A DNA stretch of 62,071 nt, counting the filler, from Stramenopiles sp. TOSAG23-6 (Eukaryota), in assembly GCA_900128565.1 (NCBI GenBank). It is 3 parts of 3 records of this genome, joined end to end, with 100 filler letters (N's around TTAATTAATTAA, not from the genome) between each part and the next. Parts side by side here need not be neighbours in the genome. Positions count along the whole stretch, not along the records: positions 1 to 20,676 come from LT636034.1; positions 20,777 to 41,398 come from LT636035.1; positions 41,499 to 62,071 come from LT636036.1. The stretch is one strand, 5' to 3'. This document shows, in pieces, positions 1 through 62,071 of the stretch. The notes under the pieces were generated by a model that was not told where the DNA came from, ran no database searches, and worked only from the letters and a program-made list of their open reading frames with translations. Every line of letters begins with the position of its first letter. Positions within the stretch are counted from its first letter, which is position 1. A program made the position numbers and the translations under genes.

Positions 1-70
1 TTTTTTCATACGAAATTTCGTACCTAACAAATTTTAGTTTTTTTTTTTGAAATATTTTTTCACAATACGC
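1..70 (+). mobile_element. Introner-like intron, 3' part (contig starts inside it); inferred end …CACAATACGC
   Basis: CATACGAAATTTCGTACCTAAC core plus TTGAAATATTTTTTCACAATAC tail; coding sequence follows. The exact end is inferred by analogy with complete copies. Confidence 0.75.
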
Positions 71-3000
71 TCTTCATGTGAAGAAGCAGAATTTAGCTCT
101 AAGAATTCATCTCGTGCTTTGGAGGAACTTTCTCATCAAATGATTCGAACTCGGAAAGAATTTTCCGCTACTCAACATATTGCTGTACAAGCACAAGAAG
201 ATGCTCGAGCAGCACAGGCAGAACGAGATATGACAATTATGAAATTTGATCGAATGGAAAAAGCATTTTCTCAGTATCAGGAGGATCAAATCATTGAGTA
301 CCAGATGCAGAAAAAAGAACATTTTAAAATTGAGGAATCTTTGAGACATAAGTTAAATACATTGCGTAGTGTTCACGAGTTTGTGAAGGATAAAGAAGAA
401 AATAACGATAATCATTTCGAAACCAATGAGAGTATACATTCTATTGACCGTCATCCTATAGAAATAAAACGGCTTCGTCTACTTGTGAAAGAAAATAAAA
501 AAGTCTCAGATGGACTTGAAGCTCATGTAATGAAACTTCAACGAGTAGAAAAAAAACTTTTGACTGAAATATCAATTATGAAAAATATTTTTGCAGAATA
601 CAAAGTTATACGCAAATGTCATGCAGGTTCTTTATTGTCTAAAATTCAAAGGTACCAGGAAGAATTAGTTATTAAAGCCGATAAGGCGATGCAACGTGAA
701 AAATTACTTGTACAACGTATTGAAAAAGTTATTTCTAAAGAAGAAAATGCGAAGAAACAAGTTCAAACTTTACGACATGAGCTTTCTTCTACTCTTGAAG
801 AGTTATCTAAAATGAAAATAATAGTTGAAACACCTAATGTAGAAGACCTAACTACAGATGACGTTAAGGCTGCGTTGAAGAACCGTTCGAATCAAGATAT
901 TATGTGTGAAGTGTTTGCCCTAAAAAATATACATGCATCGTTACTAAAGAGAATAGCTGATCAGCAACGCCATCATAACGAGATAATGTTTCATTTGGCC
1001 CAAACTTTTGTTGTCACTACTCCAAGAATTTCAAATTTGATAAATGTGGAAAATCAAGAAAATGAGAAAAATATAGAAAATCAAGAAAATTTCAACTATC
1101 CAATTACAATCACGAATACAGGTAAGAAATATTGGAGGAACGAATTTGATCAGCGATTAAAGATAAACTCGTTGCAGAAGAATATTTTTGCTATTCAGAC
1201 TAAATCATCTAATCAAATGACATCATTGATAGAAGCTAATGTAAATATTGCCATTCTGAAGCAGTGGAAAGCGAATAAAATTGCTCAATGTGTGGAAGAC
1301 AAAAAGATTGACAGGGCTGTGATGCATAGACAATATGAAAAGTGTAGGCCAATACATGATAAATCAATAACGAGTAAAGATAGAAATATGTTATCAAATG
1401 AACTTGAAAAAGCGCGAAATGAAATTAGTTTATTAAAAAATGAATTATCAATCAAAAATACTGCTTTTGTAGAACTTCAACAGGGGATGAATCGAATGAT
1501 GGATGCGGCAGTGTCTCAATTTTGTGTGAATCATGCATCATTAAGTACAATTGAAGATGATGATTCGAAATTAAAGTTTGTTCAATCAAGTTTCGATAAT
1601 GACAAGGATAAAATTCGTCGCGTGTTGATTTCTCTGGATAGTAGAATAACTCTTGAAGAAGCGAAAATAAAATCTTTAAAAGATGCGAAAATTTTAGAAA
1701 GTTCATTACAAGACTTAAAAGAAGAAACTGAAAAGTTGAAAAATAGTAAAGTAAAGAACGAAGCAATGATAAATGATCAAATAAACGAAATTGAAGAGAT
1801 GCGTGAAGCTATTCATACATCAGAATCATCCTTTTTGAAATTAGGAAATGAAAATGCTCAACTTTGCAGAAAAATAGAAAGCGTCGAGTGTAAAGCGGAA
1901 CAACAATTACAAATTTCTAATAATAATTTGTTAGAATATGATCAAAAATATCAAAGAAATATTTCAATGGAAAATAAAATGTGTATTGAATATGAAGATA
2001 AATTATCTGCAATGGAATCCTTACGAAATAAAGCTCAGTTAGCGTTTGAAAAAGCAACTGAGCAATATGAAAGAGACAAAAAACAATTGGAAGAAAATTC
2101 AATAATGATGGGAAAACAATCTCAGATTGAATTAAATGAAGTTATTGAAACATTGAAAAGAGAAAATGTTCAATTATCAATGAAGTTGTGTGATGTTGAT
2201 TCAAATCGTATAGGTATAGATTCTAGTATGTTAATCAAAAATGAAGGAAAGGATAATCTAAAAGAAATAAGTGCTGAGTGTGGTCGTTCACTAGATGATT
2301 CAAATTTTGCCCAAGCAAATCGTGAACGCAATGCAATGTTAGAAAGAGTCAAAGATTTACAAATGAGATTGGAAGAACTTCAAATGCAAATGACTAAAAT
2401 TAAATCCCTAAACAAGAATCTTTCTATATCCAACTCTGACTTAAAAACGCGTCTCGATGATGCGAAATCAGAATCTCAGAGGGTTATACTTGCATTACAA
2501 AAAGATAATACAAATATTTGTCGAAAGATGATGAAATTTAATAATGCAGTGAAGATAGCAGCTCAACTTGCGACAGATGTCGAAGGAAGTATGACAAAAA
2601 TTCATGACAAACGTGAAGTTATTAGTCTTAAAGGAAATGTACGTTTTCATGATGAATTTCAGAATTATTTTTTTTTCATACGAAATTTTGTACCTAACAT
2701 TTTTTTGANANATNTTTTNCACAATACATGCCTCAACACTTGTTGATCAAGCACTTCAAGAAATCTCCACATTTCATGTTCAAACATCAAACATTTTGGA
2801 TGAATCTATTGAGATATCCGATAGATCAGATAGTGAAAATATTTCTGGTGATGCTTTTAGTTCATCATCACTAATAATGAGTGATCTTAAAAAAAAAGAA
2901 AATGTATACTTGAATAATTCACAGAAATCAATTATTATAGATCCATCATTTACATTGAAGCAGCAACGTATGATAAAGATTGTCATTCAAGCGCTTCGAC

Positions 3001-4653
3001 ATTCAAATGTAGAATTTGAGCGAATGAAAAATGCGTACGTAGAATTTCAAAAAATACAACACCAGAAACAAAAAATAGAAAAACAATTAAAAAAAAAAAC
3101 AATAGAGTTTGAGACGAAGCTATCATCAACAGAAAAAAGTGCAAAAATGTTTGCTAACCGAGCTGTTAAAGCAGAGCTTGAAGAATTGCGCGTTGCTTTA
3201 CGAGAAAGAAATGCCCAGCGCAAGGAGGCACGTACATTTTCAGAAATGAATTTTTACCTACAATTGTTTAACTATCAAAATTTTGTGCCTAACAAATTTA
3301 TTTATTAAAAACAATATTTTTTCAAAATACATTTGAGTCTTTAAAACGTAAACAATTAATCATACAAGAAGCGAAAAGTAAAGCAAACAATGCAATCGCT
3401 CAAAGAGATGAAGCTATAGAAAGAGCGATGCGTGCTGAATTATCACTCAAATTATCCAAAACTGAAAAAGACCGTAGAAATAGTCGAATTATTGAAATGA
3501 AACATCACGAAAAACAATCAGTACAAAGGGCTGAAGCTGCTGAAGCGACTGTTGTGAAACTCACAGACAAAATAAAGGCGTTACAACACACTTCGAGTAG
3601 ATCCAAAATAAAGGCTCAAAGGTTGAAAAAACAACTTGAGAAACAGTTAGACGACATTGCAAAGGTTGATGTATATGAAAAAGAATGTAAAGAATTAAAT
3701 AATCGTATTGAAAAAATCAGACTAAAAATGCAATGCATTTCAAAACGTTTAAAATTATCTGAGAGTAAGAGAAAAACTGCCGAGAATAAAGTGGTGGAAT
3801 TAAAAAAAACTCATACGAAAACAAATATATGTAAATCTCGTAAGTATAAGAAAAATGTACAAAATAAAAAAACTGAAAATAAATCTGAAAATAAATCTGA
3901 AAATAAATCTGAAAATAAATCTGAAAATAAAGATTTTCAAAATTCAGACATTGATTCGATACAATGTAAATTAGAGACTGCTGAGAATCGTATTGAGGAT
4001 TTATGTGGAGCAATCATTGCAATGATTTCTGCAATAATGTTTGGTAATTCACAATTACAACACCAATTATTACACAATACGGAAAATAAAGGTAACAAGT
4101 TTGAATCATCAGCTGATCATTTACTTCAATTACCAGTAGAGCAAGTTGATACATGGGTGGAAGATTCTCTCAACAAACATTCGCTTCTCTTGTACGTTTT
4201 CAAAATTGATTTTTTACATATATTTTTTTACGCTGAAAGTTGTGTACCTAACAAATCTTTTAAACCAAAATGTTTTTTTCACAATACTTACTACATAAAG
4301 TCCAGACGGCTCTATCTAACATGCAAATAGACGAGGCTGTGCTCCAAGTAGTACTTGCTGATATTATAGAAGAAAGAGTTCGTTTACATTTAGCAGCTGA
4401 TATTGCCGATGTTGCCTTGGATGACGAAAATATACATATTTCTGAGGAGGACATGAAATTTGCATCAGATCGATTTAAAACCGCAGCTTCATTGCGCAGA
4501 TATGAAAATCTTGTCATTCGCATGCAAGATCAATCTGCCTTGGAATATAAAGAAAATCAAAAAGCATTTGAACAATACGAGGATCAAATTAAAATACTCA
4601 AAGAAGAGAAATGGGGATATCCTCCAACTAATAAGTTGCCCTATAGAAAATAA
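71..4653 (+). CDS. Large coiled-coil protein, 5'-partial; exons 71-2638, 2730-3231, 3333-4191, 4290-4653
   Basis: Four consecutive E/K/Q-rich ORFs join in frame once the three repeat-family introns are removed (KGN|ASTL, EA L|ESL, SLL L|LHK). Confidence 0.75.
2639..2729 (+). mobile_element. Introner-like GT-AT intron (91 nt, phase 0)
   Basis: AT|GTACGTTTTCATGATGAATTTC…TACGAAATTTTGTACCTAAC…ACAATACAT|GCC; removal restores the frame. Confidence 0.85.
3232..3332 (+). mobile_element. Introner-like GT-AT intron (101 nt, phase 1), diverged core
   Basis: AC|GTACATTTT…TTTTGTGCCTAAC…TTCAAAATACAT|TT; removal restores the frame. Confidence 0.8.
3873..3931 (+). repeat. 12-bp coding tandem repeat (CTGAAAATAAAT x~5, ENKS)
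   Basis: Visible directly in the sequence. Confidence 0.9.
4192..4289 (+). mobile_element. Introner-like GT-TT intron (98 nt, phase 2)
   Basis: TT|GTACGTTTT…GTGTACCTAAC…TTCACAATACTT|A; the frame is restored when one TT copy is removed with the element. Confidence 0.8.
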
Positions 4654-10667: not shown

Positions 10668-10723
10668 TTTATTAAAAGAAATAAATTCTAAATTCCAAAT
10701 CATGTGTACTTTATAAACTATTT

Positions 10724-13700
10724 TTACGAGAACAAATCATCGCGATCAATTGTCACAGCTCCAGCACCTTCAACCTCAGAGAAATTCAAGAAATGTTGTT
10801 TTCTGTGTATTTCATCATAAAATGTTTTCGGATTAGCCAGACATAAGTCGTAATGCATCCCTTTAGAATGCTTTATTCCCTGGAAATTATAATTCCAAAT
10901 GTTATCCTGTGGCACTAAGAAACTTCCAAAGAAACGATCCGATAAAAGTAACTGAGTTTGTTCATAATGCGAGGGTGAAAACCCAACGGGACTTGGAGTT
11001 TTATCATCATTTTGTCTGCCCCAATCGAAACCCTCAGGCGTGAGCTTGTAGCATGAAAGAGAGCAACTTCCTGGAGTAAATGAGATCGGTAATACAACAG
11101 TTGTTTCACCATCCCAGGATGTATTATCTGCCATAACTTTCGCATGCATTGTTACGTCGTATGGTGATAATCCATTTAGTTCCGCCGGTTGAGTGTGAAT
11201 CCATCCAAGTGGTTCAAGACCTTCAATAAAATCATGCTCAGGTAATTTAGTAGGAAATGTCACGCCTCTATGAGTACCAATTTGTGGAACCATGACGATA
11301 AGACGAATTTCTTTTACAGATGGATTTTCTGCTGGAGAAATACCATAAATGTAACCACCAACAATTGTACGTAAATCTGAAATGCAGATGAATTGTTTCA
11401 GTATGTTCTTCGGCATTACATACGTAAAACCTGTAGCACCATCCTCATCGCCATTGCCAACAAATATATTTTTGCATCGCAGAGGTAAATTTGTTGCAGA
11501 AATTGCACGCATTCTCCAATCTGTTTTACTAGCAAAAGTATCTTGTTCATATTGTGACGTATTTGTAACAATCATTTCATCACCATGTTTGTTCACAGTT
11601 CGTGTTGTCGTTGCTGTCAATTGTGAAGCTTCGCGCGCTTGTTTCTCTATATCAGCAATTTGTTGACGCTGTAAACTTGGTGCAGCAATTTCCATTCCTA
11701 AAATAATATCTCTTATTTCTGATTGAGTAAGACTTTGAATACTGACATTGTTTTTCTTACCAAAGTCTTCAAGGATCAAATCTTTCAATGAAACCTCAAC
11801 TTTAATCCATTCTTCATCAGTGAGGGTAGGCCAGATATGATGACCAGCAGTAACAGTAGTAGTGTCTGGTCTCAACACAATCTTAGCTTTATCGTGACTT
11901 ACATGTAGAGCTCTCAGAATAAGAATGAGTCGAGAAAACGCAGTATATGATGAAATTGTTTTGAGCCAATCATCATAAATGTTGAATAAAAGCATTTGAG
12001 GTTCAGTTGCTTTAAGAATTAAATCGCCAAACTTTTCTACCTTCAAGCACGCCATAAATGGCAATTGCAAATCACAACCTTTAATCACAATATTNGNAAA
12101 ATCNATNAATGNANCTCCATCGGATCCAAGAGAAATGGCCGAGTAACAATAATTTGCTTTGGTTGTTCTTCAACAGGGAGAGAACGAATCAGAGCAGCAA
12201 CTTCTTCTGCCGTTTTCCATTTTGCCAACTGTGATAAACGTTTCTGGCCTGCCCATACCGAAGTATGAATAATTTTCAAAAACAACTGTCCTGTTCTTGG
12301 ATTGAAGATGAATATTGCACCATTTATAGGTCTTGTTGTCAAATTACCATCAAATGTCTTATGTATTGTGACACGATATACGTTTGTATCGTCAACAAAC
12401 CAAATTATTTGGTTGGAAAATAATTCACCATAATTCTGTGATGACAAATACGGTTCTGTAGGCTCTGAAGAATACAACTGAAGACCTTTTCGAATACGTT
12501 CTCTCAATACATACAGTGCTGGATTAGACTTCACTATTTTCGCCATGGCTTGCTGTACCAAAGGCTTGCAACCCGGGAACCAATTTCCGAAGCCTGAATA
12601 GAGATTATATGCAAGATCAACTGCAAGAATTACACCAGTAGGAGACGGATATATAGACATATTATCAGTTGTATAATCCAAAAACTTTGCACGACTATAC
12701 CGTTCAATATCATGAGAGTCATAATCACCCCATCTACATTGGATATCTAACCAATATTTCGTGGTAGTTGTATCATCATAATTATCTTTTGGGTCATGTA
12801 ATAATGCCGGCTTCGCTACTTGCCATTTGTAAGCCGCAAATAATAAAATATCAGCACAAGAGGTATTCATTTTGTAACTTTTACGAGGATGAATCGTTTC
12901 TTTCTGTACGTTTTCGATTTCTAATGCATCCAGTTCTTGATCAAATACTTGGCATATATCCATCACAATACTTTCATGAATTTTTTGCCACAAATGGGCA
13001 CGAAATATCTGAATAAGAGAAATTTTCAAAGTAGGAATTTTACCATGCATGAAAATACCAGTCAAATCCAATTGTACTTGAAAACCAACATATACATTTG
13101 CACGATTAATTGTTGGAGACCACCATAAAGTAAAACGTCGATTCGGAATCTGATTCAAACCTGAACGCTGCGCATTTGTCAATTTTTTAAATCTCATAGA
13201 TTCTTCAAAACCAGATGCTTTTTCCCAAAACAATCCTTCCCAAGTTGGAAAATAAGTTCCCTTGAAGAGCGTGTGTTCTAAAATACCTTCAACGCCGCCC
13301 AAAGCTTGGATCATATCCGTACGATAATTATTTAAATTCCATAATTTACCATCGTGACGTTGATGAGTCCACCAAAACGGGTCAGTTCTATATTGAATAT
13401 ACTGACGAAAATGTTTACGTACGCGCCAACCTTTATCGTATGCAAGAGTATGCCGATCTTTTTGAAACAATGTATTTATACGAGGCACACCACGATCCCA
13501 AGAGTCTTCAAGATCTTCTAACGTTAACCTTCGATTTTGAGCATTAGCCTCTTGACGTTTGAGAGCATATTCAGCCCAAACACGTTGACTATCAATAAAT
13601 TCAGCTTCCCATGGTTGGATGTAACGATATAAATTAGGGATAAGTTGATCTTCCTCATGAGACATACCAGACCTAAAATGAGTAACACCTGCATCAGTTT

Positions 13701-16700
13701 GCTTGGAGTACCGTAAATCAGATTGTGGAATCAAAACATGACCCATTGAAAGCATTCCTAGACCACCCAATTCTTTTGGGGTGTAGAAGACTACAGGAGG
13801 GAAACGACTAGGCATTTTTGAATTTAAACCAACTTTAATCCGTGTTTGCATCTTATTTTCACATTTTACAAGAATATCAAGAAGTTCTTGTGTATGTACT
13901 ACAGCTTCACGATAATATACCATGAGACTAATACATGCTGTATTCCACTTATTTGCAATTTTAGTGAAAGTCGCTTGACCAGCTGTCATAAGTATATTTC
14001 GAACACGATTTTCAAATTCAAGACAACCTTCTGCGTCTACACGCAAATACGCTTGTGCAGTCCTTTCTTTTGTTTCTTCATTTTGTAGATTCCACACGCC
14101 ATCTTTATTGACAAAATCCGACATATTTGCCATGCGGCACTTTGGAAGAATGCGTACTTCAAATCCACACATATTAAATAATACATTAGGATTATCACGA
14201 CTATAGACTGATACGAATGAATGTTCCCATTCTAAAGTTGTCACTGAACGCGGTAATCTATTATTCAGATCCCAAAATGTTGCCCTTCCTAAATTAACAT
14301 CATGTTTCATTAAACGCATTCGAGCATCACGAGGCCAACATTTTTTGTTATTATACCCAACAATATTTTCATTATTTGGATCCGGATTTTCAGTGAGATA
14401 TCTTTGAATAAGATCTTTACTCTGATCAGAAGAGAATTTCAACAACATAAAGACTTTATCAATATATCTAGCATACATTCGAATAGGATGACGGACTTCT
14501 GTTTCCAACGAATCAAAAGTGAGAAATTCATTCGGACGCTGAGGAGGACCTGCAAGCTCAGATGCACGAGTTAGACCTAGCGACAGAAGATCAAGCACGA
14601 GACCATAATATTGAAATATAAAGGATGCGAATTGAATTCCTCTAATGAGACCGTAACTGTTAGTATGCATCATATCCTTGAAACTTAACACAACATTATT
14701 TTTAGCAGTCATATAATCAGCGATATTATGATCAACAATTAAACGCAAAAGTCGGTTTAATAAAGTCAAATCGATTTTCTCGTAGACTTTTTCAAATTTT
14801 GATTGAACCATAACTAGACATTCGCCATTCTTTGTCTCCCAGACGTCATGTAAATTATTCATTCCCTGACACCATTTGTAAACAAGTAATGGAGGTGGTT
14901 CTGAATCAGCAGGCTTGACCCAATTTGGAAATAATCTTCTTTTATCAGCTTCATACCAAATGTATTGGTCGAGGTATTGATCAGTTATCTTCTCTAAAGG
15001 CTCGACTTCATATACCGGAATTAAATGAGTATATAAATCTAAAAATGTCATACCTACTTCTTTAAATGCACGTTGCACTAGCATATGTCTTTTGATACGC
15101 GCCAAAGCTTCATGAGGATTATCATACGCCAACTCAACTAGACCTAATTCTTCACGTTCACCACTTGATAGACGATGTTTTGTCGTATATATTTCTTTCA
15201 ATCTTTCAAGAGATAAAATAAGTAGTTTCGTATCGTGCTTGTAAGACAAAGGAGGGAATGGAATAGGAGCAAATTTTCTTGATTCTAACCAATGTACCGT
15301 TGTAGTATATATAGCAACAGCTTCTTCAGAGGAAACATATGGACCATCTTTAAGGTAATTATGTTGTCGCTCTTGTTCAGCTTTCAAGAAAAGACGAGTA
15401 AGTCGACCTAGATTTTTCCTCGTAACAGTTTTATTACAAGTTGCGCCTCTACGAACACGTTCACGATTGTAATGAGCAATATTCGTCCACCAATCTGCTT
15501 TACTCTTGACATATCGAAGAATCATGTTTTCAATAGGTGCTGGTAAACCAGGGACTTTCCATGGAATATTAGCTTTCCAACATCGCCAAGCTTCTGATAA
15601 ATGCTGCAAAATAGTACGACTTTTATTAGCTTTGACTCCTTCAGGCATCATATCGATAATATCATGCATAACTGCAGCACGAAGTTCAAGGTCGAAATGA
15701 GATTCTACACGTTGTTTTGTTACAGTTTTAGCAATTCCTTTTGAATGACGTCCTTCAAATTGACGTGCAAGAAGATTTCCGAGCCATCTTTCAAGTAGCG
15801 GTATAATACCTCGAAGGAAGAAGAGCCAAACTCTCCATGTCGATACCCAGAAGCCAACACCTGGACCTTTACCAACAGGACCAGTATTGAAACGATAATA
15901 TATCAAATGTTTCAGATCTTTACACATCCGTATTTGTTTCATTAGCTTATATTTATACCGATACATACCTGTAAGTTGTCCGACATGAGAGAATATATAC
16001 TGCAAACCATCTGCGAGTTGATATGCATCAACATTACCTAAACGATATTGAACATGTGTATCAACAACAAGTTTTGTAAGACGTAATATTTCTCTGGTTA
16101 AATGAAACGCATTACCAAATCGAGATTTTTTCCTTTCTTTTGTAGTCAAAGTTTTGACAGGTTTTAGATTAAAATTGTAATCAAGATGGAGGTACAATAA
16201 TTGCTTTCTATGAATCAGTAAATTTAACATGTTATATCCTTGACGAACAACTTGTAAACCAGCTTCTACCCAATCTAATTCTGTACTTTGAAAAAACTTT
16301 GTTTGTCTGAGCGCTTTAAACAGATATTTTTTATTCAAAGCTCTTGGAGGACGTTTGTGCAATTCATTCTGCACCCATGACTTAAGCAACTTTTGGTATG
16401 AAACACGAACTTTGACTGGCTGGTCTCGAGAAACATGCTCTGTATACCATTGCTTAACTAATGGCACATCAATACAACGACGTGTAAAACCACTCCGCAT
16501 GTTAAAAGGTCTTGGAGCATGTAATAAAGCAATTCCTTCAGCAGTATTAGTAGTACTTATCGGAGTGTTTTGTAAGATAGGTTTCATTCCAACTGGCAAA
16601 CAAAAATCTTCTCCACCGTCTATTTGATCAGCAAGACGATTCCGTTCTTCTTCGATTTCCTTCGATTTTTCATTTTGAACAACTTGAGTACGAAAAGACG

Positions 16701-18090
16701 ATAATGGATTCACCACTGGATCATAATAAAATGCTGGCAAGTCGGGATCCTCAGGTTTTATAAAGCAAGATGGCACATGATGATAAAATGGGATAGCTAC
16801 AGATCGGGGACGGCTATTGTAAAGATATGGCATAGCAATGCGATATTCTGTGCGAATTTGCGATCGAATGATCACTTTGTTGATGTCATTAAATTCATTC
16901 CAATCTTCTTCATCTATGGCTGCGTCTTTATGCAAGGGCTCAAATTTAGGCCCACCTGGAATGGCTAAATTCAATGCTTTTGCAGTAAAAAAAGATTTTA
17001 AATCGAAAAGGTAATAATAATTCTTATCAGATAGATCGGATAACAACTGGCCAGCTAAGCGATAGAGATTACTCATAATACTGACAGGCATTCTCCATTT
17101 TCTGTAAGAAGGACCAAGCACGTACTCAGAATGTTTAAGAGGGCTGCGATCGTACAACCAATCAATGACAGGAGCATCGTCTTCCTCATCCAGTTCCATT
17201 TCTATTGCTGCCAATGGTTCCACATCTAAAAGATTATCACCATAGTCGAGCGCTGGTTCTTCATCGTCAAATGGAGGAAAACGCATACGTTTGAAATTAC
17301 GACGGTCGCGTTTTTCACGTCGCATCATGATCCACATAGTACCCCACTGGGCTTTATACACAGGCTCAATGACCCAAGGGACTTCGTTTACAAAAGTGAT
17401 TGCACCTGTTACGTGATACAGTACCTTGACGTTTTTAACTTGTTCCCACGGCATCGGCATATTTTCCAAGAGTTTATATACTGAATGTGGAACGTATTTT
17501 AGAGCACCAAGATATACACGTTTATCTGTGATATACTTTTTCGACATCATATCTCCGTGGTCTTTCACAACTTTACGCACGTGCTCCGGGGGCATGTCAC
17601 TTTTATCCATTTCGACATAACCATGCTTTCTCTTTTTCGAAAAACGACGCGTGTGCATCTTTTGCCATTTCCTAGCCTTTTCGATTAACTTCTTTCTTTT
17701 GCGTTCCTCAAGTTCCTCGGGAGTAGGTGGTTCGCGTGGTGGAGGAGGAACTTGTCCTTGAGAGTAAATTCCCGGTTGCCCAGGATGAACTTCTACTGCG
17801 TTTGGAAACGAGGGCTGGTGGGAAGAGTATTGTTGTTGGGGTAATCCTGGCGGGGGAAAACCTTGATAACCAGGTGGGGGCATGCCACCAGCCATGGAAG
17901 GATGTGCGTTCGGCGGCAGTCCAGGAGGAGCACCGAAATAATAACCAGGAGGAGCACCCGATCCTGGAGGTGGAGCACTCTGGAAAGGAGCACCCTGAAA
18001 ACCTTGTGGAGGTAATCCTGGAGGTGGACCCTGATAACCAGGTGGGGGCATACTCTGCGCCTCATCATGAATATACCCAGGTCGGGGCAT
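10724..18090 (-). CDS. PRP8: Pre-mRNA splicing factor PRP8, intronless; apparent frameshift lies in N-containing low-quality bases at ~12095-12114
   Basis: Hallmark motifs [34 protein letters not shown] and [11 protein letters not shown], plus the C-terminal Jab1/MPN region (LGWIHTQP). Confidence 0.98.
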
Positions 18091-18531
18091 TATCGCATAA
18101 GAGGGAGGTGCGTAAAGAAGGAGTGTAAGGTATTTACGCTTCGGTCCGAACTACTCGCGCGGTGTCGCGAGAGAGAGTGTCGTGTCATGGATGGCATGCG
18201 AACCGAAGCGCGACACAAAAAAAAAAAATTTGAACTCCCTTGGAGGGACAAACCTGTCCGGATCTCGCTGTAAAAAAAAAAGAAGGCTCTAACTTGGCTT
18301 GAAAATTCATGAAATTTTCAACAGAAAATGAGAATTTTCATAAATTTCAACAGAAAAATATAAAATCATAGTATATTTTTTTGCACTTTCATTAATATAC
18401 CTAAAGCGACGTTGAAACTCATGATAATAAAAAATACTAAAATGGAAATTCATATTTATTATTACTATTTAGATATGTATTTTTAATATTATTAGAAACT
18501 CAATTATTTGTAAAACATATTTTAGATGTAT

Positions 18532-20776: not shown

Positions 20777-20831
20777 CATACGAAATTTCGTACCTAACGA
20801 TTTTTTTTTGAAATATTTTTCCAAAATACAT
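20777..20831 (+). mobile_element. Introner-like intron, 3' part at contig start
   Basis: CATACGAAATTTCGTACCTAAC…TTCCAAAATACAT followed by an open frame. Confidence 0.8.
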
Positions 20832-23800: not shown

Positions 23801-25775
23801 CCATTCTGTGTGCCAACTGATGAACTTCCATGGCAGTGGCAAAAACTTCAATTAAAGCTACATAAAATAAAACAAGTTGAAGGGAATGAAAGATTCAACG
23901 AGCAGAGAGAAGATATCAAAGACGAATTGCGCTCATGTGCTATATTATTAATTCAAAGGATCTATTGGAGAGGCGAAGAAGGTACTGTCATGGAATTAGC
24001 ACCATTAACACATAAGGAGAGAATACGAAAAAAAGAAATGTTAAATGTTCTCCGAGGAACACACCAAGGTTTTAGAGTGAGCAATTTGCTTTTTCGCCGT
24101 GGTGACGTTGTAGAGAAGCAAGATTCATATTCTAATAGACTACGCAGTAAAATTGCAGCCGCAGCTACAACCAATAAAGGTGCATCTACATCAACGACAA
24201 TGTCTAGACTATTTAAAAGGAAACAAGTCACGAATCACAGCAAAAATACTCTTTTATTTTGGGCAACTTCGAATAAGAAGGGTCATGGTATGCTTTCGTT
24301 TTATGAAGATGTTATGTCACGACTTTTAAACAATCGTGGTGGTGTATGGCAACGCTCAAATGAACTAACTCCTAATGTACATGTATGTTTTTTTTTTTTT
24401 TTGTATGAATTTATTTTTCATACGAAATTTTGTACCTAACAAATTTAAATATTTTTTTTTGCAATATTTTTCCAAAATACATGTAGTGTTTGGAGGATGG
24501 GGGGGTAAAGGAATTCCTCTCTATGGAGATCAGTATGATGACGGATTTACCGCCAACGGAATTATCTCAGTAGGATCTGAAGTCTTTTCACACAAACATT
24601 CTTGGCCTTTATCTTGTTTCTCTGGACCAAATGACCCATGGAAATCAATGACTGGAAATGAGATCAAAGCATTTTGTGATGCTAGTGAAGGCGAGTTTCA
24701 AGGGCAAATACCAAATACTGTTCATGGTAAAACGTGTATGTTATTAAATTTTCAGCCATGGAACTGTCTAAAATATATATGTGATAAAGCTTTAATGGCA
24801 AAAACCCTAAAAGCGTATGCAAAACGAGATGGTATCAATATTAATTCATTGATTCCAAAAACTTTTATTTTTGATCTAAACAAATCACGAGGCGCATCTA
24901 ACAGTGATCTTAAACGAAACGTAGATAGATTTATTAAAACATACCGTGCTATAGAAAAGGATAACATTTTCAGAAGAAGATCTGGTATGAGTGCACTTGC
25001 ACAAAGTAGTCGTAATGTTTGGATATGTAAACCATCTGATGGATCACAAGGACAGAAAATCATTGTTACAGATGAAATTGCTAGAGTAATTTCTATAGGA
25101 GAATCTTTAAGACCAAATGGTCGAGGATGGATTGTTCAGAAATATATGGAAGATCCCTTGACTGTATCTGGTGGGCGTAAATTTGATATTCGAGTATGGG
25201 TACTTTTGACAAGTGACTTCCGAGTTTGTATATATAGAGAAGGTGTGTTGCGAACATCTGCAGTGTCATTTAGTTTAGACAATCTTTACGATAGATTTGT
25301 ACATTTGAGCAATCACTGTATTGCGAAGGAACACCCTGAGTATGGAAAATTTGAACCTACGAATGAATTATGGTTTTCTGAATTTGATGAGTATCTAGTA
25401 TCGAAATATGGCAAAGAGTACGGTTTCTGGACTTGTATATATCCACAAATCCGTACTCTTGTAGCACATACAGCACGAGCTCTTCGAAAAAAAATGGAAG
25501 CCCCGAAAGATGCATTTTTCAGACCCTTTCAATTGCTTGGCTTTGACTTTATGGTTAGTGCCGCGCCGGATCTTTGTGTTACTTTAATTGAAGTTAATTC
25601 ATCTCCTGCCGTTGCCGACGATCTTCGAAATGTCATGGCTGAAGACTTTTTACGTGTTGCAATCGATGAGGTATTTCCCAGTTCTCGAAATAATGCCAAC
25701 TCTTCATCGAGCCCATCAGGACCTATTCCTGGATTACCCGACGATCAAAAAGGTTTTGATGTGANTCAGNTGTNA
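20832..25775 (+). CDS. Tubulin-tyrosine-ligase-family protein with long basic, repetitive N-terminus; 5'-partial; exons 20832-24382 and 24483-~25775
   Basis: WICKP…SQG, IVQKYMEDPL, RKFDIRVWVL, HLSN, FQLLGFDFMV and LIEVNSSP motifs. The probable stop is the ambiguous TNA codon at 25773-25775. Confidence 0.85.
21017..21455 (+). repeat. Coding repeats: KNEFGAKQSKTKDS x3 (42 bp) and ETRSVVTKSTFNKPL x~4
   Basis: Visible in both DNA and protein. Confidence 0.8.
22471..22576 (+). repeat. Coding repeat SFQHRPSTA x4 (~27 bp)
   Basis: Visible in both DNA and protein. Confidence 0.75.
24383..24482 (+). mobile_element. Introner-like GT-AT intron (100 nt, phase 0)
   Basis: AT|GTATGTTTT…CATACGAAATTTTGTACCTAAC…TCCAAAATACAT|GTA; joins PNVH|VVFGG. 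Confidence 0.85.
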
Positions 25776-41498: not shown

Positions 41499-41550
41499 GT
41501 ACCTAACAAATTTAAGTTTTTTTTTTTTGAAATATTTTTCCAAAATACAT
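41499..41550 (+). mobile_element. Introner-like intron, 3' part at contig start
   Basis: GTACCTAACAAATTT…TTGAAATATTTTTCCAAAATACAT. Confidence 0.8.
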
Positions 41551-42903: not shown

Positions 42904-44480
42904 TTATGAAGAGTAAGCTTCAAGCAAACGCTTATACTTTCCATCCTTTACAATCAATTCTTCATGTGTTCCACTCTCTACAACAACTGCTCCATCGCCT
43001 TGATTTTCAAGTACGTAAATACAGTCAGCGTAACGAATTGTTGACAAGCGGTGTGCAATTACATATATTGTGAAAAAATATTTTTTTTTTCGAAAAATAA
43101 TTTTTGTAAAAATAAAAAAATTTTTATCAAAAAAAAAAATTTTATCAAAAAAAAAAAAAAAAAAATTCAAAATTAAAAAAAAAAAAAAAAAAAAATTTAT
43201 AAAAAAAAAAAAAAAAAAAAATCGAAAATAAAAAAAAAAAAAAAAAAAAAAAAACATACTATCGTCGTTCGACTTGATGTTTTATCCTTCATCAATGCAT
43301 CAAGTGAAGATTGTACAATTTTTTCACTTTCATTATCTAACGCAGATGTTGCTTCATCTAAAAGCAAAATTTTTGGATTCTTCAAAATGGCTCTTGCAAT
43401 TGCAATCCGCTGTTTTTGTCCACCTGACATATATTGTGAAAAAATATTTTTTTTTTTTTTTTGTTAGGCATGAAATTTCGTACAAAAAAAAAAAAAATAA
43501 AAAAAAAAATAAATAAAAAAAAATAAAATTCAAAATTGATTAAAAATAAAACAGACACTTTTTTACCTCGAGTGCCAACACTAAAATTATAACCACCGTT
43601 AAATTTACTGATAAAATCATGAGCATGTGCTTTTTTCGCAGCATTTTCAATTTCTGATTGAGTTGCTGTCGGTTTTCCAAATTTAATGTTGTCAGCAACA
43701 GATTCATCAAAAAGCACAGGTTCTTGACTCACCATACCAATTGTATTTCTCAAAAACTTGACATCAAGAGATCGAATATCAACATATATTGTGAAAAAAT
43801 ATTTTTTAATTGAATTTTGCAAACATACACCATCAATCAAAATACTACCATGTAACTCAGATTCATTTTTTATATATTCTGCTTCTTGAAATTCATCTGA
43901 AGTTTCATCACTTTTAATGACAACATCAATAGAATCTTTCATTTTATTTTCATCATTATCATTTGTATATTCAGTTGCTTTGGGATCATAAAAACGTTCT
44001 AATAATTGCATTACATGTATTTTGGAAAAATAAATTCGAAATCATGAAAAAAATCGTTAGGTACGAAATTTCGTATTAAAAAAAAAAAAAGTTTGATAAA
44101 AAATTGAAAAAAATAAAAAAATACAGTGCTTTTTCCACTTCCACTTGAACCTATCAATGCTGCTGTTTGACCAGCAGGAATTTTCAGATGTAATCCATCA
44201 AAAACACAGGCGTTTTTTCGTGTTGGATATGCAAAACGAACATGTTTGATACGAAAATAGTTTAATAAAAAATTAAAATTTCGTTAGGTACGAAATTTCG
44301 TATGAAATATTTTTTTTTTTTCTAAAAAAAAAAAATTAAAAAAAAAACGTACATTTACAAATTCAATTTCACCTCGAACATTTTCAATCGCTTTTGGGGG
44401 ATGAGTCGCCATACGTCTGACATCACCCTTTTCATTCCATGGTTTTGAATCGATAAGGGGTCGTCTAGAAAACAATTCGA
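42904..44480 (-). CDS. ABCB/MDR transporter C-terminal NBD, 5'-partial; exons 44480-44353, 44241-44125, 44014-43829, 43783-43557, 43428-43260, 43062-42904
   Basis: The spliced product reads [74 protein letters not shown] and [12 protein letters not shown]. Confidence 0.92.
43063..43259 (-). mobile_element. Introner-like GT-AT intron (197 nt, poly-T expanded)
   Basis: TA|GTATGTTTT…TTTTCACAATATAT|GTA; joins RTTI|VIAHRL. Confidence 0.85.
43429..43556 (-). mobile_element. Introner-like GT-AT intron (128 nt)
   Basis: GT|GTCTGTTTT…GTACGAAATTTCATGCCTAAC…CACAATATAT|G; gives KKVSGGQ. A 2-nt shifted GT-AT alternative gives KKMSGGQ. Confidence 0.85.
43784..43828 (-). mobile_element. Miniature 45-nt GT-AT intron lacking the central core
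   Basis: GT|GTATGTTTG…AAATATTTTTTCACAATATAT|GTT; interrupts IDG|VDIR. Confidence 0.75.
44015..44124 (-). mobile_element. Introner-like GT-AT intron (110 nt)
   Basis: CT|GTATTTT…TACGAAATTTCGTACCTAAC…CCAAAATACAT|GTA; restores Walker A GKST|V. Confidence 0.92.
44242..44352 (-). mobile_element. Introner-like GT-AT intron (111 nt)
   Basis: AT|GTACGTTTT…CATACGAAATTTCGTACCTAAC…TATCAAACAT|GTT; joins EFVN|VRFAYP. Confidence 0.9.
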
Positions 44481-44580
44481 ATGTATTTTGGAAAAATATT
44501 TCAAAAAAATTCTAAAGAATTTGTTAGGTACAAAATTTCGTACGAAAAAAAAATGGAATTTGAAAAAAAATAAAACATAC
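44481..44580 (-). mobile_element. Introner-like element joining a VPS11 5' exon to an ABCB exon (hybrid copy)
   Basis: Full element structure, but the flanks belong to different genes and have incompatible phases. Confidence 0.8.
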
Positions 44581-46001: not shown

Positions 46002-47433
46002 ATGTATGCATTTGAAACAGTAATAACATTGCTATGTGGCAGTGTACTGTTTTTTAGTGCAAGGGCGAAAGGAGCGCAAATGAAACTACAGTCAATCCAG
46101 TCATTCAACGAATTGATGAAAGATGATATCACTGAGCTAGACAGGAAAATTATGAAAATTGAAGCTGAAAACAATATCAGAATACCAGATACAAAGGCAA
46201 TCGCTGGTATAGGCTCAATTATGTATGAAAATGCAAAAGGTATACGTTTTAGAGGTGATCGAACATCTCATATTCTAAATACTTCAAATACGAAAAATAA
46301 TACTACATTTTCGAATATACAACCTCTACCACAATTAAATCTAAAACATATAAATGTAGATGCTTCACATGTCAACACAATAATGACTGACGACACTACC
46401 AATAATAGTGAGAAATTAAGACTTTCAAACAAATTAGAAAGTCTTCAAAGGGAGGTATATGAACAGAAGAAAACTATCCAAATATTGCAAGAAAAAGCTG
46501 AATCTGCAGAGGCACGCTCCGATGCTGCTATCGTAAAAGCTATTCAAAACGAAGAGCGAACAAAGATAGAGATGCAGCATAGACTGGCTGCACAGATAAG
46601 AAAAGCAGAAACTCTGGGAAATTTTAAGTTAAAACAAGAAAGGAATAAATTAGAACAAGAAGTAAGTAATTTAAAGATCATATTATCAAATAAAATACAA
46701 GAATATAATAAAACTCAATCAGATATGAACTCAATACAGTCGAATACAATGGAACAAAGAGAGAAATTCAAGACCTATATCGCTGATTTGGAAAATACAA
46801 AAAATGCACTTGAAAAATACAAGCAAACGAATATTGATCATAACCTTCAGATACGTCAGGAAGTTGAAAAAGCCAAACAAGAAAAATTAAAATGGAAAAA
46901 AGCAGCTTTAGCTGTACTCAATGCAATGTTAGGGAGTTATATCAAGATGAAAAATCCGATATCTGGAAAAATTGAATTGCATGCAAAACCAGGTAATATA
47001 ACAGATACAGATTATGCAATTTCATCACCTTCAACCTTTTTAATAGAATTGCAAAAAGCAATGAAATCTCATGATAAAAAAGTCTCACAAATTGGAGCAG
47101 AGAGTGAACGTAAAAAAACAAGTAGAATTTATGAACAATTTGATAAGTATGTTTTATTTTTTTTTTTACAAAAAAATCGAATTTATTTTTCGTACGAAAT
47201 TTTGTACCTAACGATTGTTTTTTTGAAATATTTTTCTAAAATACAATGATGATGATGATGTACATTTGGAATATGAACAAGAAGGTGGATTGAAAGTAAA
47301 TGAAAATATCAAAGATAAGGAGAATATTAAAGAAAATCAGAGTGAAATCAAACAAGTTGACATTCTACATGACTTGGATATAGTACCCATATTACCCAGA
47401 TTTCGTGAAAAAATAGAAAGAGATGCAACGTAA
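46002..47433 (+). CDS. Coiled-coil protein with N-terminal hydrophobic anchor; exons 46002-47146 and 47247-47433
   Basis: Joining across the element gives FD N DDDDVHLEY… up to TAA at 47433. Confidence 0.65.
47147..47246 (+). mobile_element. Introner-like GT-AA intron (100 nt, phase 2)
   Basis: AA|GTATGTTTT…CGTACGAAATTTTGTACCTAAC…TCTAAAATACAA|T. Confidence 0.78.
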
Positions 47434-50284: not shown

Positions 50285-52009
50285 TTAAAAATTAAATGAA
50301 AATGAAGAAACTCCATTCTTGTTATCATCAGCAGTTGTACTCGTACTACCACTACTGACTTTATTCTCACTTGAATCATCATCTCCTGCAATAATTTTAC
50401 TCCATAATGAATATTTCGTTGCATCCATGGCACTTTTGACACCAGGTAATTCGGTAAGATGTGGACGTTTTTCTTTGATCACTGACACAAATCTCCCATG
50501 TAAAGAATCTCCATCTTTAATTCCGGAAACTTGCTCTTTTTTATCACGAAGAAATTCTAATACTTTGGCTAGATTATTTGCTGTTACGAAGTTTTGGGTG
50601 ATTGCAACCGACGGTTCAATATTAATAACAGCATGCCACCAACCGTGGGGGACATAAACAATTTCACCTGCCTTGCATGGTTTGTGAAAAAATATTTAAA
50701 ATTTCTTTTTGTTAGGTACGAAATGTAGTACAAAACAAAATTGAAATTGAAATTGAAATAAAAACATACAAGTGCACTGTATGGGTTGTTGTGATGGAGG
50801 TAATGCTTCGATCTCTGTGTAAAAGTTCAAATACCATTCCATGAGAGATACTGATTGGGTCACCTCAGCAAGATCATTCGTAGGATATACGCCAGGGGGC
50901 GTTACACCAGGAGGAAACATGATCCAACGTTTTGCACCACTGATTACGGCATTCCAAGCAGAAGTTGCATTTGGATCGATGTGAAAGGATGAACCAGATT
51001 TTGCAGGACCCATAATCATCCATCTATAATATGGACGCTGTGGAATTTCACCTAGAAGAGAAAATAAATCTAAATCATAGCTACTATTACTACTACTACT
51101 ACTACTACTACTAACCTTGTTATTCTCAACGCCAGGTGATGAAAAATACACAGGAACAGTAAAATCATGCAAAAGTTCAGGTAATTTGTCAAAAAAACGC
51201 TTATCAAACAAATAAATCGGTTGATCATCACTCGAGCTTACACCCTCCATATAACTAATATAATCATCCATCGTGAAATTATAGCCGCCTGCATTAAACT
51301 TCACAGTTTTACCTTCAATAAGACTAGCCTTTTGAGCTTGTTTCTTTAGATAATCAAAATTCCACGCACGATCTTTCGATGCGAATGCGTGCCATTGAGT
51401 AGCACAATCAGTAATTAATACAGGTTGATTTTTAGCATCAAATTCGCGAATAAAATCTTCCACTGAGAGAGACTTTGCTGAACGCCGCTCCATATTTTCA
51501 ACAGTTGTCCATGAAGGATGTAGTCCAGAAGACGCACAAAGCAAAGGACGATATAGTGCATCAGAATATAAACCATCAACAATAATAGGTGCATGCTCTT
51601 TGTATTCATCAATTCGATTTGAGCCAGACAACAATCTATACACATAACTTTGCTTCCAAGAATATTTAAAGGAAAAATCCCCACCAAATTTAACTAGACA
51701 AAGACGACGCCATAAAGCGTCGTGATGAGAAAATACATACAAGGCACGACTTGCCAGACATAAATGACACAATGCACTTGCATCGAAATATGAAAAAACT
51801 ATTAAAAGAACATCATCACTACGAATCGTTCCAAAACTACCAAGACCAGTCTGTCGACAGTCCACAAAGCCATCTAAAAGTGAATCCGCGTACATATTTC
51901 CAAGTAATCGCACACCATATGGATGTTTACCCCGCTCCAAAATATTCGTTACTAAATCATGACCTCCAACAAGTCGACTTTTCTTTGCTGGTGGAAGCAT
52001 GTCGCCCAT
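50285..52009 (-). CDS. F-box plus JmjC (JMJD6-like) protein; exons 52009-50770 and 50676-50285
   Basis: F-box segment, then YRWMIMGPAKSGSSFHIDPNATSAWNAVISGAKRW and the spliced KAGEIVYVPHGWWHAVIN. Confidence 0.88.
50677..50769 (-). mobile_element. Introner-like GT-AT intron (93 nt, phase 1)
   Basis: TT|GTATGTTTT…TTCGTACCTAAC…TTCACAAACCAT|GC; joins QCTC KAGEIVYVP. Confidence 0.85.
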
Positions 52010-59679: not shown

Positions 59680-59975
59680 TTTCAACACACTCAGAATATA
59701 TATATATATATATATATGATACAATTGAAATGCAAAAAGAAACAATTAGAAATGAACTTGCTCCTTTTGTTTTTGCAAGTGACAACTGTCGTAGACGATG
59801 GGAAAGCTTTTGGCGAAAACTTACGAAGAGCGGTTATTCAACCGTTTCATCAAAATTTGGTACAAATATCCGTACTAAAATTACTAAAATCAGCTTCGAA
59901 TTCGTGTAACTGTTACCTTTCATTGTGACGTCGACACATAATTGATCCCATACAAGTGGACAAATTTGCGTCAAC

Positions 59976-60695
59976 ATGGGCGAGATGAATTTAGAGGAGG
60001 AAGTAGTAGACCGAAAGATGGAGTTAAATCGAATTGGAATACGTACGTTTGTACAGAGACCCGGAATTGCAACACACCATTCGTACATAGTTGGGTGTGA
60101 CACTTTTGGTTTGAGTGAACGATTACAAGAGCAAGTTGTTGACGATGAATTAACGTTGAGAAAGTTCCGAGCAGATTTAGAAATATTAAAAGTTAATGGA
60201 ATGTGCCGGCGACCACCAATATTTTGTGAGATTTTAAGTCTTATGCAGATGGCACCAAATCCTTTTATGTATCCAGATAAACGGAAGTATACAGAATATC
60301 GCCTTGGTGTCGTTGCATGTAGCGACCCATCTGCGTTTGACCTTCCTTATATTATTCCTAAGCACTTGGAAGCAACACTTAAATGCCTGGAGCTCCCAAG
60401 AGTACATTCTTACCCCACAATAGTAGTAGTACCAATCACGCAGGTGAGTCCAATGACAGATCAGGTAAAAGGTTGGAAGGAGCGTAATCTTGAAATCTAT
60501 CACTTTGAATATCCTCCAAAGGAAGCGGCTAAAACCCAGTTGGAGATAGAGTTAGAAGCAGAAGACGCCGAATTAGAAAAAGAAGAAGCCGAGGCAAAAG
60601 CAAAAGCAGCAGAGGAACGTAAAAGAAAGGCAGAAAGACAAAAGCAAGCAAAATTGAAACGTCTGCAGAAACAACTTAGAAATCGAAAACGATAA
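59976..60695 (+). CDS. Hypothetical protein with C-terminal charged helix
   Basis: 239-aa ATG-initiated ORF with no recognised domain. Confidence 0.6.
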   Translation: MGEMNLEEEVVDRKMELNRIGIRTFVQRPGIATHHSYIVGCDTFGLSERLQEQVVDDELTLRKFRADLEILKVNGMCRRPPIFCEILSLMQMAPNPFMYPDKRKYTEYRLGVVACSDPSAFDLPYIIPKHLEATLKCLELPRVHSYPTIVVVPITQVSPMTDQVKGWKERNLEIYHFEYPPKEAAKTQLEIELEAEDAELEKEEAEAKAKAAEERKRKAERQKQAKLKRLQKQLRNRKR

Positions 60696-60723
60696 ATATT
60701 ATTAAAGTATTATTAAATTTTTT

Positions 60724-62071
60724 TTATATGAAATCATATGAATAATCTGAGCCACTACGACTACTATAGCTATATTCTCCATCACTATAGCTATACTCAT
60801 CATCATTTCCATAATTTATTTCCGAATGCCCCCGACGACTCATATTACGCATAATTTGAAATTTACTTGGTCTACTATTTTTTGACACAGCCTTTATATT
60901 TTGTGTGATAGCTTGAGCCCAATCTTTGAGATATTTTTTTCGTCTCCTAGAAGAAACATTTTTTGGAGCTGAAAATTCATAACATTTTCCATCTTTATGA
61001 CTTTTGATTGTTTGTAATTTGAAACCACTCTTTACCATTTTAATAGAAGCTCCCTCTAAAGGAATATAACCAACAAAGCTACCATCGGACATACTTGGGC
61101 CTTTATAGTAATACAATTCATCTCGATCTAAACTAAAGAATGTTTTGTGAAAAAATATTTTTTTTTACCGAAAAAAAAAATCGTTAGGTACAAAATTTCG
61201 TATGAAAATAAATAAGTTTGAAATTCATGATGAAAACGTACATCTTCTTTTCCCGAATAACCCACCATCTTTATGAAGCCATCCTGAGTGTGTCGTATAA
61301 CCCTCTTCCATACTTTTTGATAAGTCTTCAAATTGTTCGCCTAAAATAACATTGAAATGCGAGATAAACAGTTCTACAAGATCAAGCCATTCCTCATTCT
61401 CCATCATACGATTCTGCAATTGGATTGAAGTTTTTTTATCATTTGAGGATTGTTTTATTTTTTTCCGATTGGGAGGCCATAAATCAATTCCTACATGATG
61501 AGCAAGATTTTTTGCTTGACCGCCACCCATTGATACTAATTTGTGCAAGAAGTGTAAAAGAATCATCAAATCTCGGGCCAAGTATATCCGTGTTTTTCTT
61601 ATGTTTTCTCCCACTTGTTGAGCAATTTCATCTGTTGAAAGAGGGAAAGCGCGTGCCTTACGAAGTGCTTTCAATAAAGAAACATAAGAGTTCATAGGTA
61701 CTAATAACTCATTTTGTTTCAATAATTGCACCAAATGAACTTTTATGAGCCCTGAGATGAGATGTACGGGTTGCGCAGGTAGTATAATCTCATGTAATTG
61801 GACAGAGTCGGCACACATGACATCTGAATAAATCGCCGTCGCTCCTTGAATATCAGATTCCTCAAAAAGATCTACATCAAAATGTCCAACACGCATTACG
61901 CGATGAAGGTAACTAAGGACACCTGTAAACCCACTTTCATTTTTCCCAAAGAGTCCACCATTATTGTTTAGTTTTATAGTATTGGATGTATTTTTATGAA
62001 TTTTATTGGTATGATATGTATTTTGACCATGACTACTTCTATGTTTTTCGTGGTCACTAGAACTACAACTA
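60724..62071 (-). CDS. Degenerate RhoGAP-like plus PH-domain protein; exons 62071-61242 and 61139-60724
   Basis: VHLISGLIK…LLVP…LLHFLHKLV…KNLA is RhoGAP-like; the spliced HSGWLHKDGGLFGKRRFFSLDRDELYYYK…GYIPL…WAQAI is a PH domain. Confidence 0.72.
61140..61241 (-). mobile_element. Introner-like GT-AT intron (102 nt, phase 1)
   Basis: AT|GTACGTTTTCATCATGAATTTC…CATACGAAATTTTGTACCTAAC…TTCACAAAACAT|TC; joins KRR F FSL. Confidence 0.87.

Follow-up and report, generated by a model that had tools for sequence, protein, structure and literature searches.

A putative introner-like family of introns without a 3′ AG in Stramenopiles sp. TOSAG23-6

The window analysed here is a stretch of 62,071 nucleotides from Stramenopiles sp. 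TOSAG23-6, made up of three contigs joined by N44-TTAATTAATTAA-N44 linkers at 20677-20776 and 41399-41498; one additional run of N lies at 41005-41109, and single N bases are scattered throughout. The GC content is 30-42%, and long open reading frames (ORFs) cover about 91% of the non-N sequence, a figure taken from a rough union. The ORF products comprise Prp8, a DDX52-type helicase and a C2-domain protein; a tubulin-tyrosine ligase and a 5077-codon ORF with thrombospondin repeats; an ankyrin protein, the ATPase half of an ABCB-type transporter (the ABC gene below) and the N-terminus of VPS11; and an F-BAR protein, a JmjC/F-box protein, a kinesin and a PH-domain protein. For the helicase and the JmjC protein, the best named relatives come from stramenopiles (for example, oomycetes and brown algae), at about 40-55% identity. 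Their top labelled protein matches, P0002 and P0121, carry 'MAST3' in the source label, and we have treated the organism as a marine stramenopile of the MAST-3 type. Within the coding sequence of these genes lie 16 copies of one AT-rich intron family, 13 complete and three truncated by contig starts (Table 1), and it is this family, whose members do not end in AG, that we describe.

Each complete copy begins with a 5′ box, GTAYGTTTT, and closes with a 3′ box, AATATTTTTYCAMAATAY, followed by two further bases; the 5′ site is GTAYGT or a one-base variant in 13/13, and CCTAAC is present in 11/13. A listing of CCTAAC contexts together with scans for the 5′ and 3′ boxes locates a central block in 14 of the 16 copies, in which a 14-nt palindrome is joined to CCTAAC. 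The remaining two, introns of the ABC gene with 5′ ends at 43828(-) and 43259(-), have the end boxes and no central block. At up to three mismatches, the central motif TACGAAATTTYGTACCTAAC is found 11 times against an expectation of 0.01, and no shuffle out of 100 gave as many. A profile made from 11 of the copies and scanned against both strands recovers all 14 block-bearing copies of the window and one in a public metagenome contig, L003. It also matches 41800-41728(-) with an E value of 0.004, which we take to be a chance match, as it is antisense within coding sequence and both end boxes are missing. An earlier note on this DNA had proposed that one repeat family supplies every intron; every intron seen in the window does belong to this family, and its consensus and its coordinates for the copies hold. 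The complete copies measure 45, 91, 93, 98, 100, 100, 100, 101, 102, 110, 111, 128 and 197 nt, so that 11 of the 13 fall within the 91-128 nt previously given as typical. The copies at 2639 and 61241 (copies are named by the position of their 5′ end) share 21 of their first 22 nt, as had been noted, and the 5′ half of the 2639 copy is about 90% like that of the 61241 copy. All 16 copies are intragenic, lie in the sense orientation of the host ORF and interrupt coding sequence, in phase 0 in six cases, phase 1 in three and phase 2 in three, and the host genes are unrelated to one another; the earlier description of orientation, location and phase is thus confirmed for the window.

Table 1. Copies of the intron family in the window, with the Prp8 gene as context
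Feature	Position	Strand	Length (nt)	Phase	Details
Truncated copy, contig 1 start	1..70	+			Palindrome and CCTAAC block, 3′ box; nhmmer E 5.4e-11
Intron, coiled-coil gene	2639..2729	+	91	0	GTACGT...ACAT
Intron	3232..3332	+	101	1	GTACAT...ACAT; palindrome decayed, CCTAAC intact
Intron	4192..4289	+	98	2	End TT; preceding exon bases also TT
Truncated copy, contig 2 start	20777..20831	+			Central block, 3′ box, end ACAT; E 1.2e-10
Intron	24383..24482	+	100	0	Just 5′ of tubulin-tyrosine-ligase domain
Truncated copy, contig 3 start	41499..41550	+			GTACCTAAC through 3′ box, end ACAT; E 4.3e-05
Intron, ABC ATPase domain	43063..43259	-	197	0	End boxes only, T-rich interior; RNA-supported
Intron	43429..43556	-	128	2	GTCTGT...ATAT; splits codon just before ABC signature SGGQ
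Intron, ABC gene	43784..43828	-	45	0	Shortest intron; 5′ and 3′ boxes, no CCTAAC block
Intron	44015..44124	-	110	0	Directly 3′ of Walker A; closest relative is the L003 copy
Intron, ABC domain	44242..44352	-	111	0	GTACGT...ACAT
Copy	44481..44580	-	100		Links VPS11 N-terminal ORF to ABC ATPase ORF out of frame
Intron	47147..47246	+	100	2	End AA; preceding exon bases also AA
Intron, JmjC/cupin domain	50677..50769	-	93	1	End CCAT
Intron	61140..61241	-	102	1	Splits PH domain
Prp8 gene (context gene)	10724..18150	-			Intron-free, all Prp8 domains

When a copy is excised from its GT through the second base past the 3′ box, exactly one frame reads through the junction in 12 of the 13 complete copies. 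In the ABC ATPase, the motifs continue across five junctions with no residue gained or lost (the strand before Walker A; Walker A and the Q-loop helix; the IDG turn; SGGQ; the RTT-IAHRLST switch), and one exon can be aligned over its full length to residues 469-541 of the P-glycoprotein chain 9nfi_A. The JmjC junction (50769 copy) is crossed by a gap-free alignment to seven homologues, and the PH domain runs uninterrupted across the 61241 junction after excision. Another public protein, P0122 (56% identical), also crosses the JmjC junction without a gap; as it could stem from DNA or from RNA, we have not counted it as an empty site. For the intron that ends in AA (47147), a protein search with the last 60 upstream residues gave no candidates, and this junction is therefore without support at the protein level. 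In the truncated copy at 1..70, GC follows AATAC and the 3′ end is uncertain by 1-2 nt. The copy at 44481-44580 calls for a correction to the earlier account: none of the three frames is open across its junction. A contig of the DNA metagenome run X2 (X2-8) ends at 44558, inside the copy, and we conclude that the copy is probably a chimeric assembly join within the repeat, its 3′ half belonging to the ABC gene.

RNA evidence comes from two poly(A) metatranscriptome runs, X10 and X9, each from a different study; its interpretation is confined to those parts of the stretch that RNA covers. Two RNA contigs, X10-1 and X9-24, have six letters where the window has 203, which means that exactly 197 nt are removed at 43063-43259. 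Four further pieces (X10-2, X9-25, X9-28 and X9-29) stop at predicted exon ends, with a register ambiguity of 1-3 nt, and their records extend 25-93 letters beyond these ends. X10-2 spans 44122-44243 and has 80 more letters in its record, X9-25 starts at 43554, inside the 3-nt register ambiguity of the 43556 intron, and X9-29 ends at 47145 with 41 more letters.

Few features of eukaryotic genes are as constant as the AG at the 3′ end of introns, which the catalytic centre of the spliceosome reads directly. In the 13 complete copies, the 5′ end is GT without exception, and the 3′ end is AT in 11, TT in one, AA in one and AG in none. The earlier note had left the two bases after AATAC free; two bases are indeed present, yet they are AT in 11 of the 13 complete copies, and we therefore define the intron as GT...AT and not as GT...AC. 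Repeats at the junctions let the cut slide by a few bases, and no register ends in AG, whether judged by reading frames, protein homology or RNA contigs, which bears out the previous claim that the element supplies no AG. For the intron at 43259, proven by RNA, the four possible registers end in AT, TG, GT or TA. The 44580 copy has a TTTAG 11 nt 3′ of CCTAAC, and the RNA piece X9-28 does not use it. Of the features that mark U2-type introns, the GT 5′ site with its U6-pairing extension and a CTAAC-type branch box are therefore found and the AG 3′ end is not.

Public gene models show what happens when an AG is imposed on these genes. P0002 and P0121 cover 18532-20517(-) and 50288-52039(-) of the window, respectively. 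We considered whether they might belong to a sister species that shares the JmjC intron and rejected this, for P0121 is identical to the window at 506/506 aligned residues and P0002 differs from it by gaps only; they are therefore gene models of the same loci. The public JmjC model has chosen an AG 9 nt downstream and so loses three residues, KAG, which all homologues keep. From the helicase, whose ORF is continuous, the public model has removed in-frame pieces that include the DEAD box. The public models of these loci thus force AG acceptors and are wrong; the AG-less nature of the introns has evidently been overlooked in public annotation, and the annotation of this genome appears to be compromised by forced GT-AG boundaries.

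The earlier note had argued for a high copy number from contigs that begin inside copies. All three do so (at 1, 20777 and 41499) and none ends in one; these starts, and the out-of-frame join at 44481-44580, agree with a high-copy repeat. In run X2, word depth is 1433-14440 in most bins that bear an intron, as against about 5-12 in single-copy bins, with 61.6 in the bin of the divergent 50769 copy. Depth at the copies is therefore about 1000 times that of the flanks, a ratio that sums over all organisms in the sample. At position 44517, 8987 of a depth of 9327 has the consensus letter of the family and not the letter of this locus, so the depth stems from other copies, and 8220 contigs of the run match a 20-kb stretch. 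These data favour a high copy number and suggest about a thousand copies or more, again with the proviso that metagenome depth adds up every organism sampled. In dozens of DNA-metagenome contigs, and in a few from RNA, the 3′ end of a copy is followed by the 5′ start of a copy at a distance of 0-2 bases (41548-41552 to 47145-47147, and 41551 to 61242; one example is found in 18 contigs at a depth of 124). Such head-to-tail joins could be tandem copies, insertions into a target recreated at the end of a copy, or circles.

We suggest that these introns probably constitute an introner-like, duplicative family of the spliceosomal type, descended from one short AT-rich repeat and possessing a 3′ splice site that lacks AG. 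The family would have multiplied by duplication into many coding sites, the element bringing with it the yeast-like 5′ site GTAYGTTTT, the branch site and the 3′ box. RNA is cut before the GT and two bases past the roughly 20-nt 3′ box, normally at GT...AT and otherwise at TT or AA; the position of the 3′ cut would depend on the box, either recognised directly or serving as the point from which distance is set, rather than on AG. CCTAAC, which follows the 14-nt palindrome and lies 32-44 nt from the end, would be the usual branch site, and the two introns without the block would use another adenosine. As GTAYGT and CTAAC are classic signals of the major spliceosome, we infer that this is the splicing agent; the Prp8 gene has all its domains, so the core of the spliceosome is encoded. 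In the second splicing step, the last base of the intron pairs with the first G, and a U could wobble there. The terminal two bases may derive from a 2-nt target duplication, with later selection pulling them towards AT. The family could have spread by DNA insertion with a short target duplication, by local hopping or conversion between neighbours, or by reverse splicing. A bolder version, which is possible and which we put forward tentatively, is that in a free-living marine lineage of stramenopiles the whole intron complement has been replaced by one self-propagating element with an AU 3′ splice site, that the spliceosome no longer reads AG, that the cut is set by the 20-nt box, and that the last two bases come from target duplication.

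The most serious rival, which we nevertheless consider unlikely, is that these are old introns with an extended consensus specific to the lineage. In an intron-poor lineage with a changed spliceosome, only introns with long 5′, branch and 3′ motifs would survive, and their likeness would come from selection and occasional conversion with no mobile insertion. A number of observations weigh against the reading that we favour, several of them as this rival would have it. Conservation is in blocks (5′ box, centre, 3′ box), as expected under splicing constraint, and the 5′ and 3′ boxes are common to all introns seen; without an AG, the 3′ site would itself require a long recognition box. CCTAAC is invariant in 12/12 aligned block-bearing copies, while the adjoining palindrome is intact in 8/12 and broken in 4/12; selection therefore shapes part of the pattern. 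The profile scan of the window found no intergenic or antisense copy among the 16, though few intergenic copies are to be expected when about 91% of the window is coding. As the window shows no other class of intron, these motifs could be no more than the lineage's own splice signals. Domain scans of the window found no autonomous element or transposase domain, and complementarity between the termini is about 6 nt only, (AT)GTAT...ATAC(AT). With this complementarity, a variable register of the flank repeat and none of the 16 copies intergenic or antisense, the family does not conform to miniature inverted-repeat transposable elements, non-autonomous DNA transposons with inverted termini of about 10 nt or more, a target duplication of fixed length and copies that also lie outside genes and in either orientation. 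The distribution among genes is very uneven, as uneven loss would make it: 983 coding nt of the ABC gene hold five or six copies (P about 1e-5 at a uniform rate) and six ORFs that total 34.6 kb hold none (P 5e-5). A pattern scan of JGI metagenome contigs gave four matches, of which one (L003) is a true family copy. Lastly, full RNA proof exists for one intron only (43063-43259), the RNA contig X9-27 enters the 44242-44352 intron and is thus unspliced, and intron depth in the RNA libraries exceeds exon depth about 1000-fold, much as in the DNA run. These RNA data give no sign of efficient splicing, and much of the signal for this organism in the RNA libraries would be unspliced RNA, stable excised introns or DNA carry-over.

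The old-intron explanation is weakened by similarity that splicing signals do not account for. The 14 block-bearing copies of the window and the L003 copy fit one profile over their whole length. Outside the signals, similarity is significant in eight pairs for segment 1 and in one pair for segment 2, and it links specific pairs across unrelated genes and L003 (z of 6.9 for 2639/61241, 5.8 for 3232/4192, 5.0 and 4.6 for 44124/L003, 4.0 for 24383/47147). In each case, none of 300 shuffles reached the observed score; the shuffles preserve base composition only, so runs of T somewhat inflate z. Neighbouring introns share private variants: the last 24 nt of the three 3′-most introns of the ABC gene are identical and include a private ATATAT ending, and in the coiled-coil gene the adjacent introns at 3232 and 4192 are more alike than either is to any other copy. 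Two introns that are nonetheless removed, one of them with RNA proof, lack the best-conserved block, so that splicing needs alone do not explain why it is conserved. The breaks and mis-joins of contigs within copies also weigh against old introns, as does the fact that both introns that do not end in AT copy their 5′ flank. The non-signal similarity and the private variants of neighbours, comparisons made on sequence, support a putative duplicative origin. As regards the central block, we found no compensatory change in the palindrome among 12 copies, the four that are not intact breaking pairs; CCTAAC thus has the look of a sequence under selection, probably as the branch site, and the palindrome that of an inherited one. 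Only one variation is common in the palindrome, C/T at a CpG, TTTCGTA against TTTTGTA (for example, 2679-2692 and 44289-44302), which looks like CpG decay and not like selection for RNA pairing.

The flanks of the introns may point, if weakly, in the same direction. The test of Gozashti et al. (PMC9860276), which compares equal junction offsets with random pairings, was applied to 14 introns. In 8/14 cases, against 5.35 expected (P 0.012), the dinucleotide that ends the intron is the same as the one that precedes the GT in the exon, and the matches include both non-AT introns, TT with TT and AA with AA. Against the favoured reading, no single position is significant (P 0.14-1.0), six of the 14 flanks differ, and n is 14. 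The match is suggestive of a short target duplication in a small sample. The exon context is approximately AT|G on both sides of the junction, and the 24383 copy has a 7-nt direct repeat, ACATGTA, across both of its junctions. In minimum-energy folds, the splice sites pair end to end in 4/13 introns; relative to mononucleotide shuffles, the folding energy has z below -2 in 5/13 and above +1 in 3/13. After excision, the junctions of the 24383, 50769 and 44580 copies read as palindromes (8, 8 and 6 nt), as around CATG and TGCA. These (3/13, of uncertain significance) could stem from a target site that is symmetric or from selection that favours a stem between the two ends. The clustering of copies fits local hopping or conversion or, equally, uneven loss. 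The exons between the ABC introns (43260-44480(-)) measure 128, 117, 186, 227 and 169 nt, about the size of a nucleosome repeat. A bias of introner insertion towards nucleosome linkers has been reported, and the ABC exon sizes recall that pattern.

Origin or splicing of the family through the minor (U12-like) spliceosome seems very improbable to us. GTAYGTTTT matches the U12-type RTATCCTTT at 7/9 positions, and the two share a long conserved 5′ motif; positions +7 to +9 are conserved here (T17-T19 invariant), which is unusual for U2-type introns. CCTAAC resembles TCCTTAAC in its CCT..AAC shape, and U12-type introns have variable 3′ ends and tolerate non-AG. However, positions +5/+6 are GT where U12-type sites have CC, the distance from CCTAAC to the end is 32-44 nt as against 10-26 nt, which places the family outside the U12 class, and GT...AT is here the rule. 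An Rfam scan of the window gave no RNA family above threshold and no small nuclear RNA of either spliceosome system.

We give hardly any credence to elimination at the DNA level, as with the internal eliminated sequences of ciliates, which have a short flank repeat and inverted ends and are excised precisely, and by which intron-less RNA would be transcribed from rearranged DNA. The AT flank repeat with GTAT...ATAC ends and the head-to-tail joins in DNA contigs recall such a process, yet the assembly contains the copies, an independent DNA metagenome has them at a depth no lower than that of the flanks, none of the eight X2 DNA pieces listed (the longest) is a copy-less one, and the copies bear GTAYGT and CTAAC, classic spliceosomal signals. 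We know of no nuclear dualism in stramenopiles, which also counts against this explanation. An artefact of amplification, assembly or contamination, to which the probable chimeric join and the isolated N bases and indel of low-quality regions might point, can practically be dismissed, since copies occur in independent DNA and RNA runs of other studies and in the unrelated public contig L003, and their removal restores conserved protein domains exactly.

Other candidate introns and family members were examined and set aside. A frame break in the Prp8 gene at 12085-12169(-) is not an intron: it consists of six isolated N bases and a 1-nt loss. Similar low-quality patterns of N occur at 2709-2719, 25765-25789 and elsewhere and are likewise not introns. 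The ORF break between 59745 and 59834 was rejected as an intron of another class, being intergenic (TA)n sequence with a start codon after it. The 5077-codon ORF at 25883-41116(-) is without introns, and its sole Pfam matches are thrombospondin type 1 repeats near the C-terminal part. Among the JGI matches, L001, L002 and L004 were rejected, as they match in the central 19 nt only; L005, the sole match in a collection of prokaryote genomes, has only the central block and is taken as chance, and a pattern scan of IMG/VR gave no match. L003 has a second, diverged intron at about 409-545(+), which reads GTACGT, then GTACCTAAT, then TTCACAG, and which in frame could end in a normal CAG. If this intron is real, AG ends coexist with the family in a relative.

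Introner element families were reportedly described by Worden in 2009 and Huff in 2016. Introners are intron families derived from non-autonomous transposons and are found in Micromonas, Aureococcus, dinoflagellates, Chrysochromulina and others; a type in Chrysochromulina carries the 5′ site and co-opts its 3′ site from a 4-bp duplication (PMC9860276). Judged by the parts of that paper drawn on here, the introns of the window resemble introners in being many, similar and short, in unrelated genes, in the sense orientation, richer in AT than the exons and endowed with an element-borne splice site, and they resemble those of Chrysochromulina in having a short direct repeat that overlaps the boundary (PMC9860276). 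They differ in their ends, the described introners being GY...AG (PMC9860276), a feature not strictly defining for introners, and ours AT in 11/13 and never AG. They differ also in that the family makes up all 16 introns seen and is not a subset beside ordinary introns, and in that the flank repeat is about 2 nt and weakly supported. The marine protist Amoebophrya (Farhat et al. 2021, PMC7789003) likewise has repeated non-GT-AG introns, with direct repeats over the boundaries (3-5 nt in Amoebophrya) and complementary ends able to pair. According to the portions of that report used here, its introns show no clear pattern of terminal dinucleotides, and many families have inverted repeats of 8-20 nt (PMC7789003). 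Here, in contrast, there is one family, in which the yeast-like GTAYGT 5′ site is fixed, a CTAAC box is present and the 3′ box is likewise fixed and ends in AT, and end complementarity is only about 6 nt. On these partial accounts, neither introners nor Amoebophrya show a fixed GT...AT rule or a single family as all introns.

The other comparison is with intron-poor protists and yeasts. The introns of Trichomonas and Giardia have GTAYGT and a fused ACTAACACACAG, and the yeast branch box is TACTAAC. The window shares with them GTAYGT, a CTAAC-type branch box, long near-invariant signals and few, short introns, and the 3′ box ending ...CACAATACAT resembles the protist ...ACACACAG except at the last base. 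Those systems end in AG and have conserved motifs of at most 12 nt; here, about 55 nt including the palindrome are conserved, and the non-signal segments are homologous too. Full-text searches of the literature on MAST-3, introners and non-canonical introns found no description of such introns, supplements being outside their scope. Term look-ups in MAST genome papers gave 'intron' twice and 'splice' not at all in PMC5778133, no match in PMC12614181 and no 'intron' in PMC8163842; a bioRxiv preprint (10.64898/2026.04.17.719054) has 'intron' eight times, in general uses only.

If the bolder version above is true, no organism before this one would have had GU...AU as its rule, and a mobile element and the splicing machinery would have evolved together, in a natural setting, to dispense with the otherwise universal AG. 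Where nearly every intron of a lineage ends in AT and is a copy of one repeat, nature would provide a test of how the site of the second splicing step is selected, and a clean system for the study of intron gain. It would also be a warning for annotation, as gene counts and claims of pseudogenes in such genomes would need to be re-examined. The organism comes from an abundant, uncultured group of ocean grazers, and the repeat is a strong marker in metagenomes.

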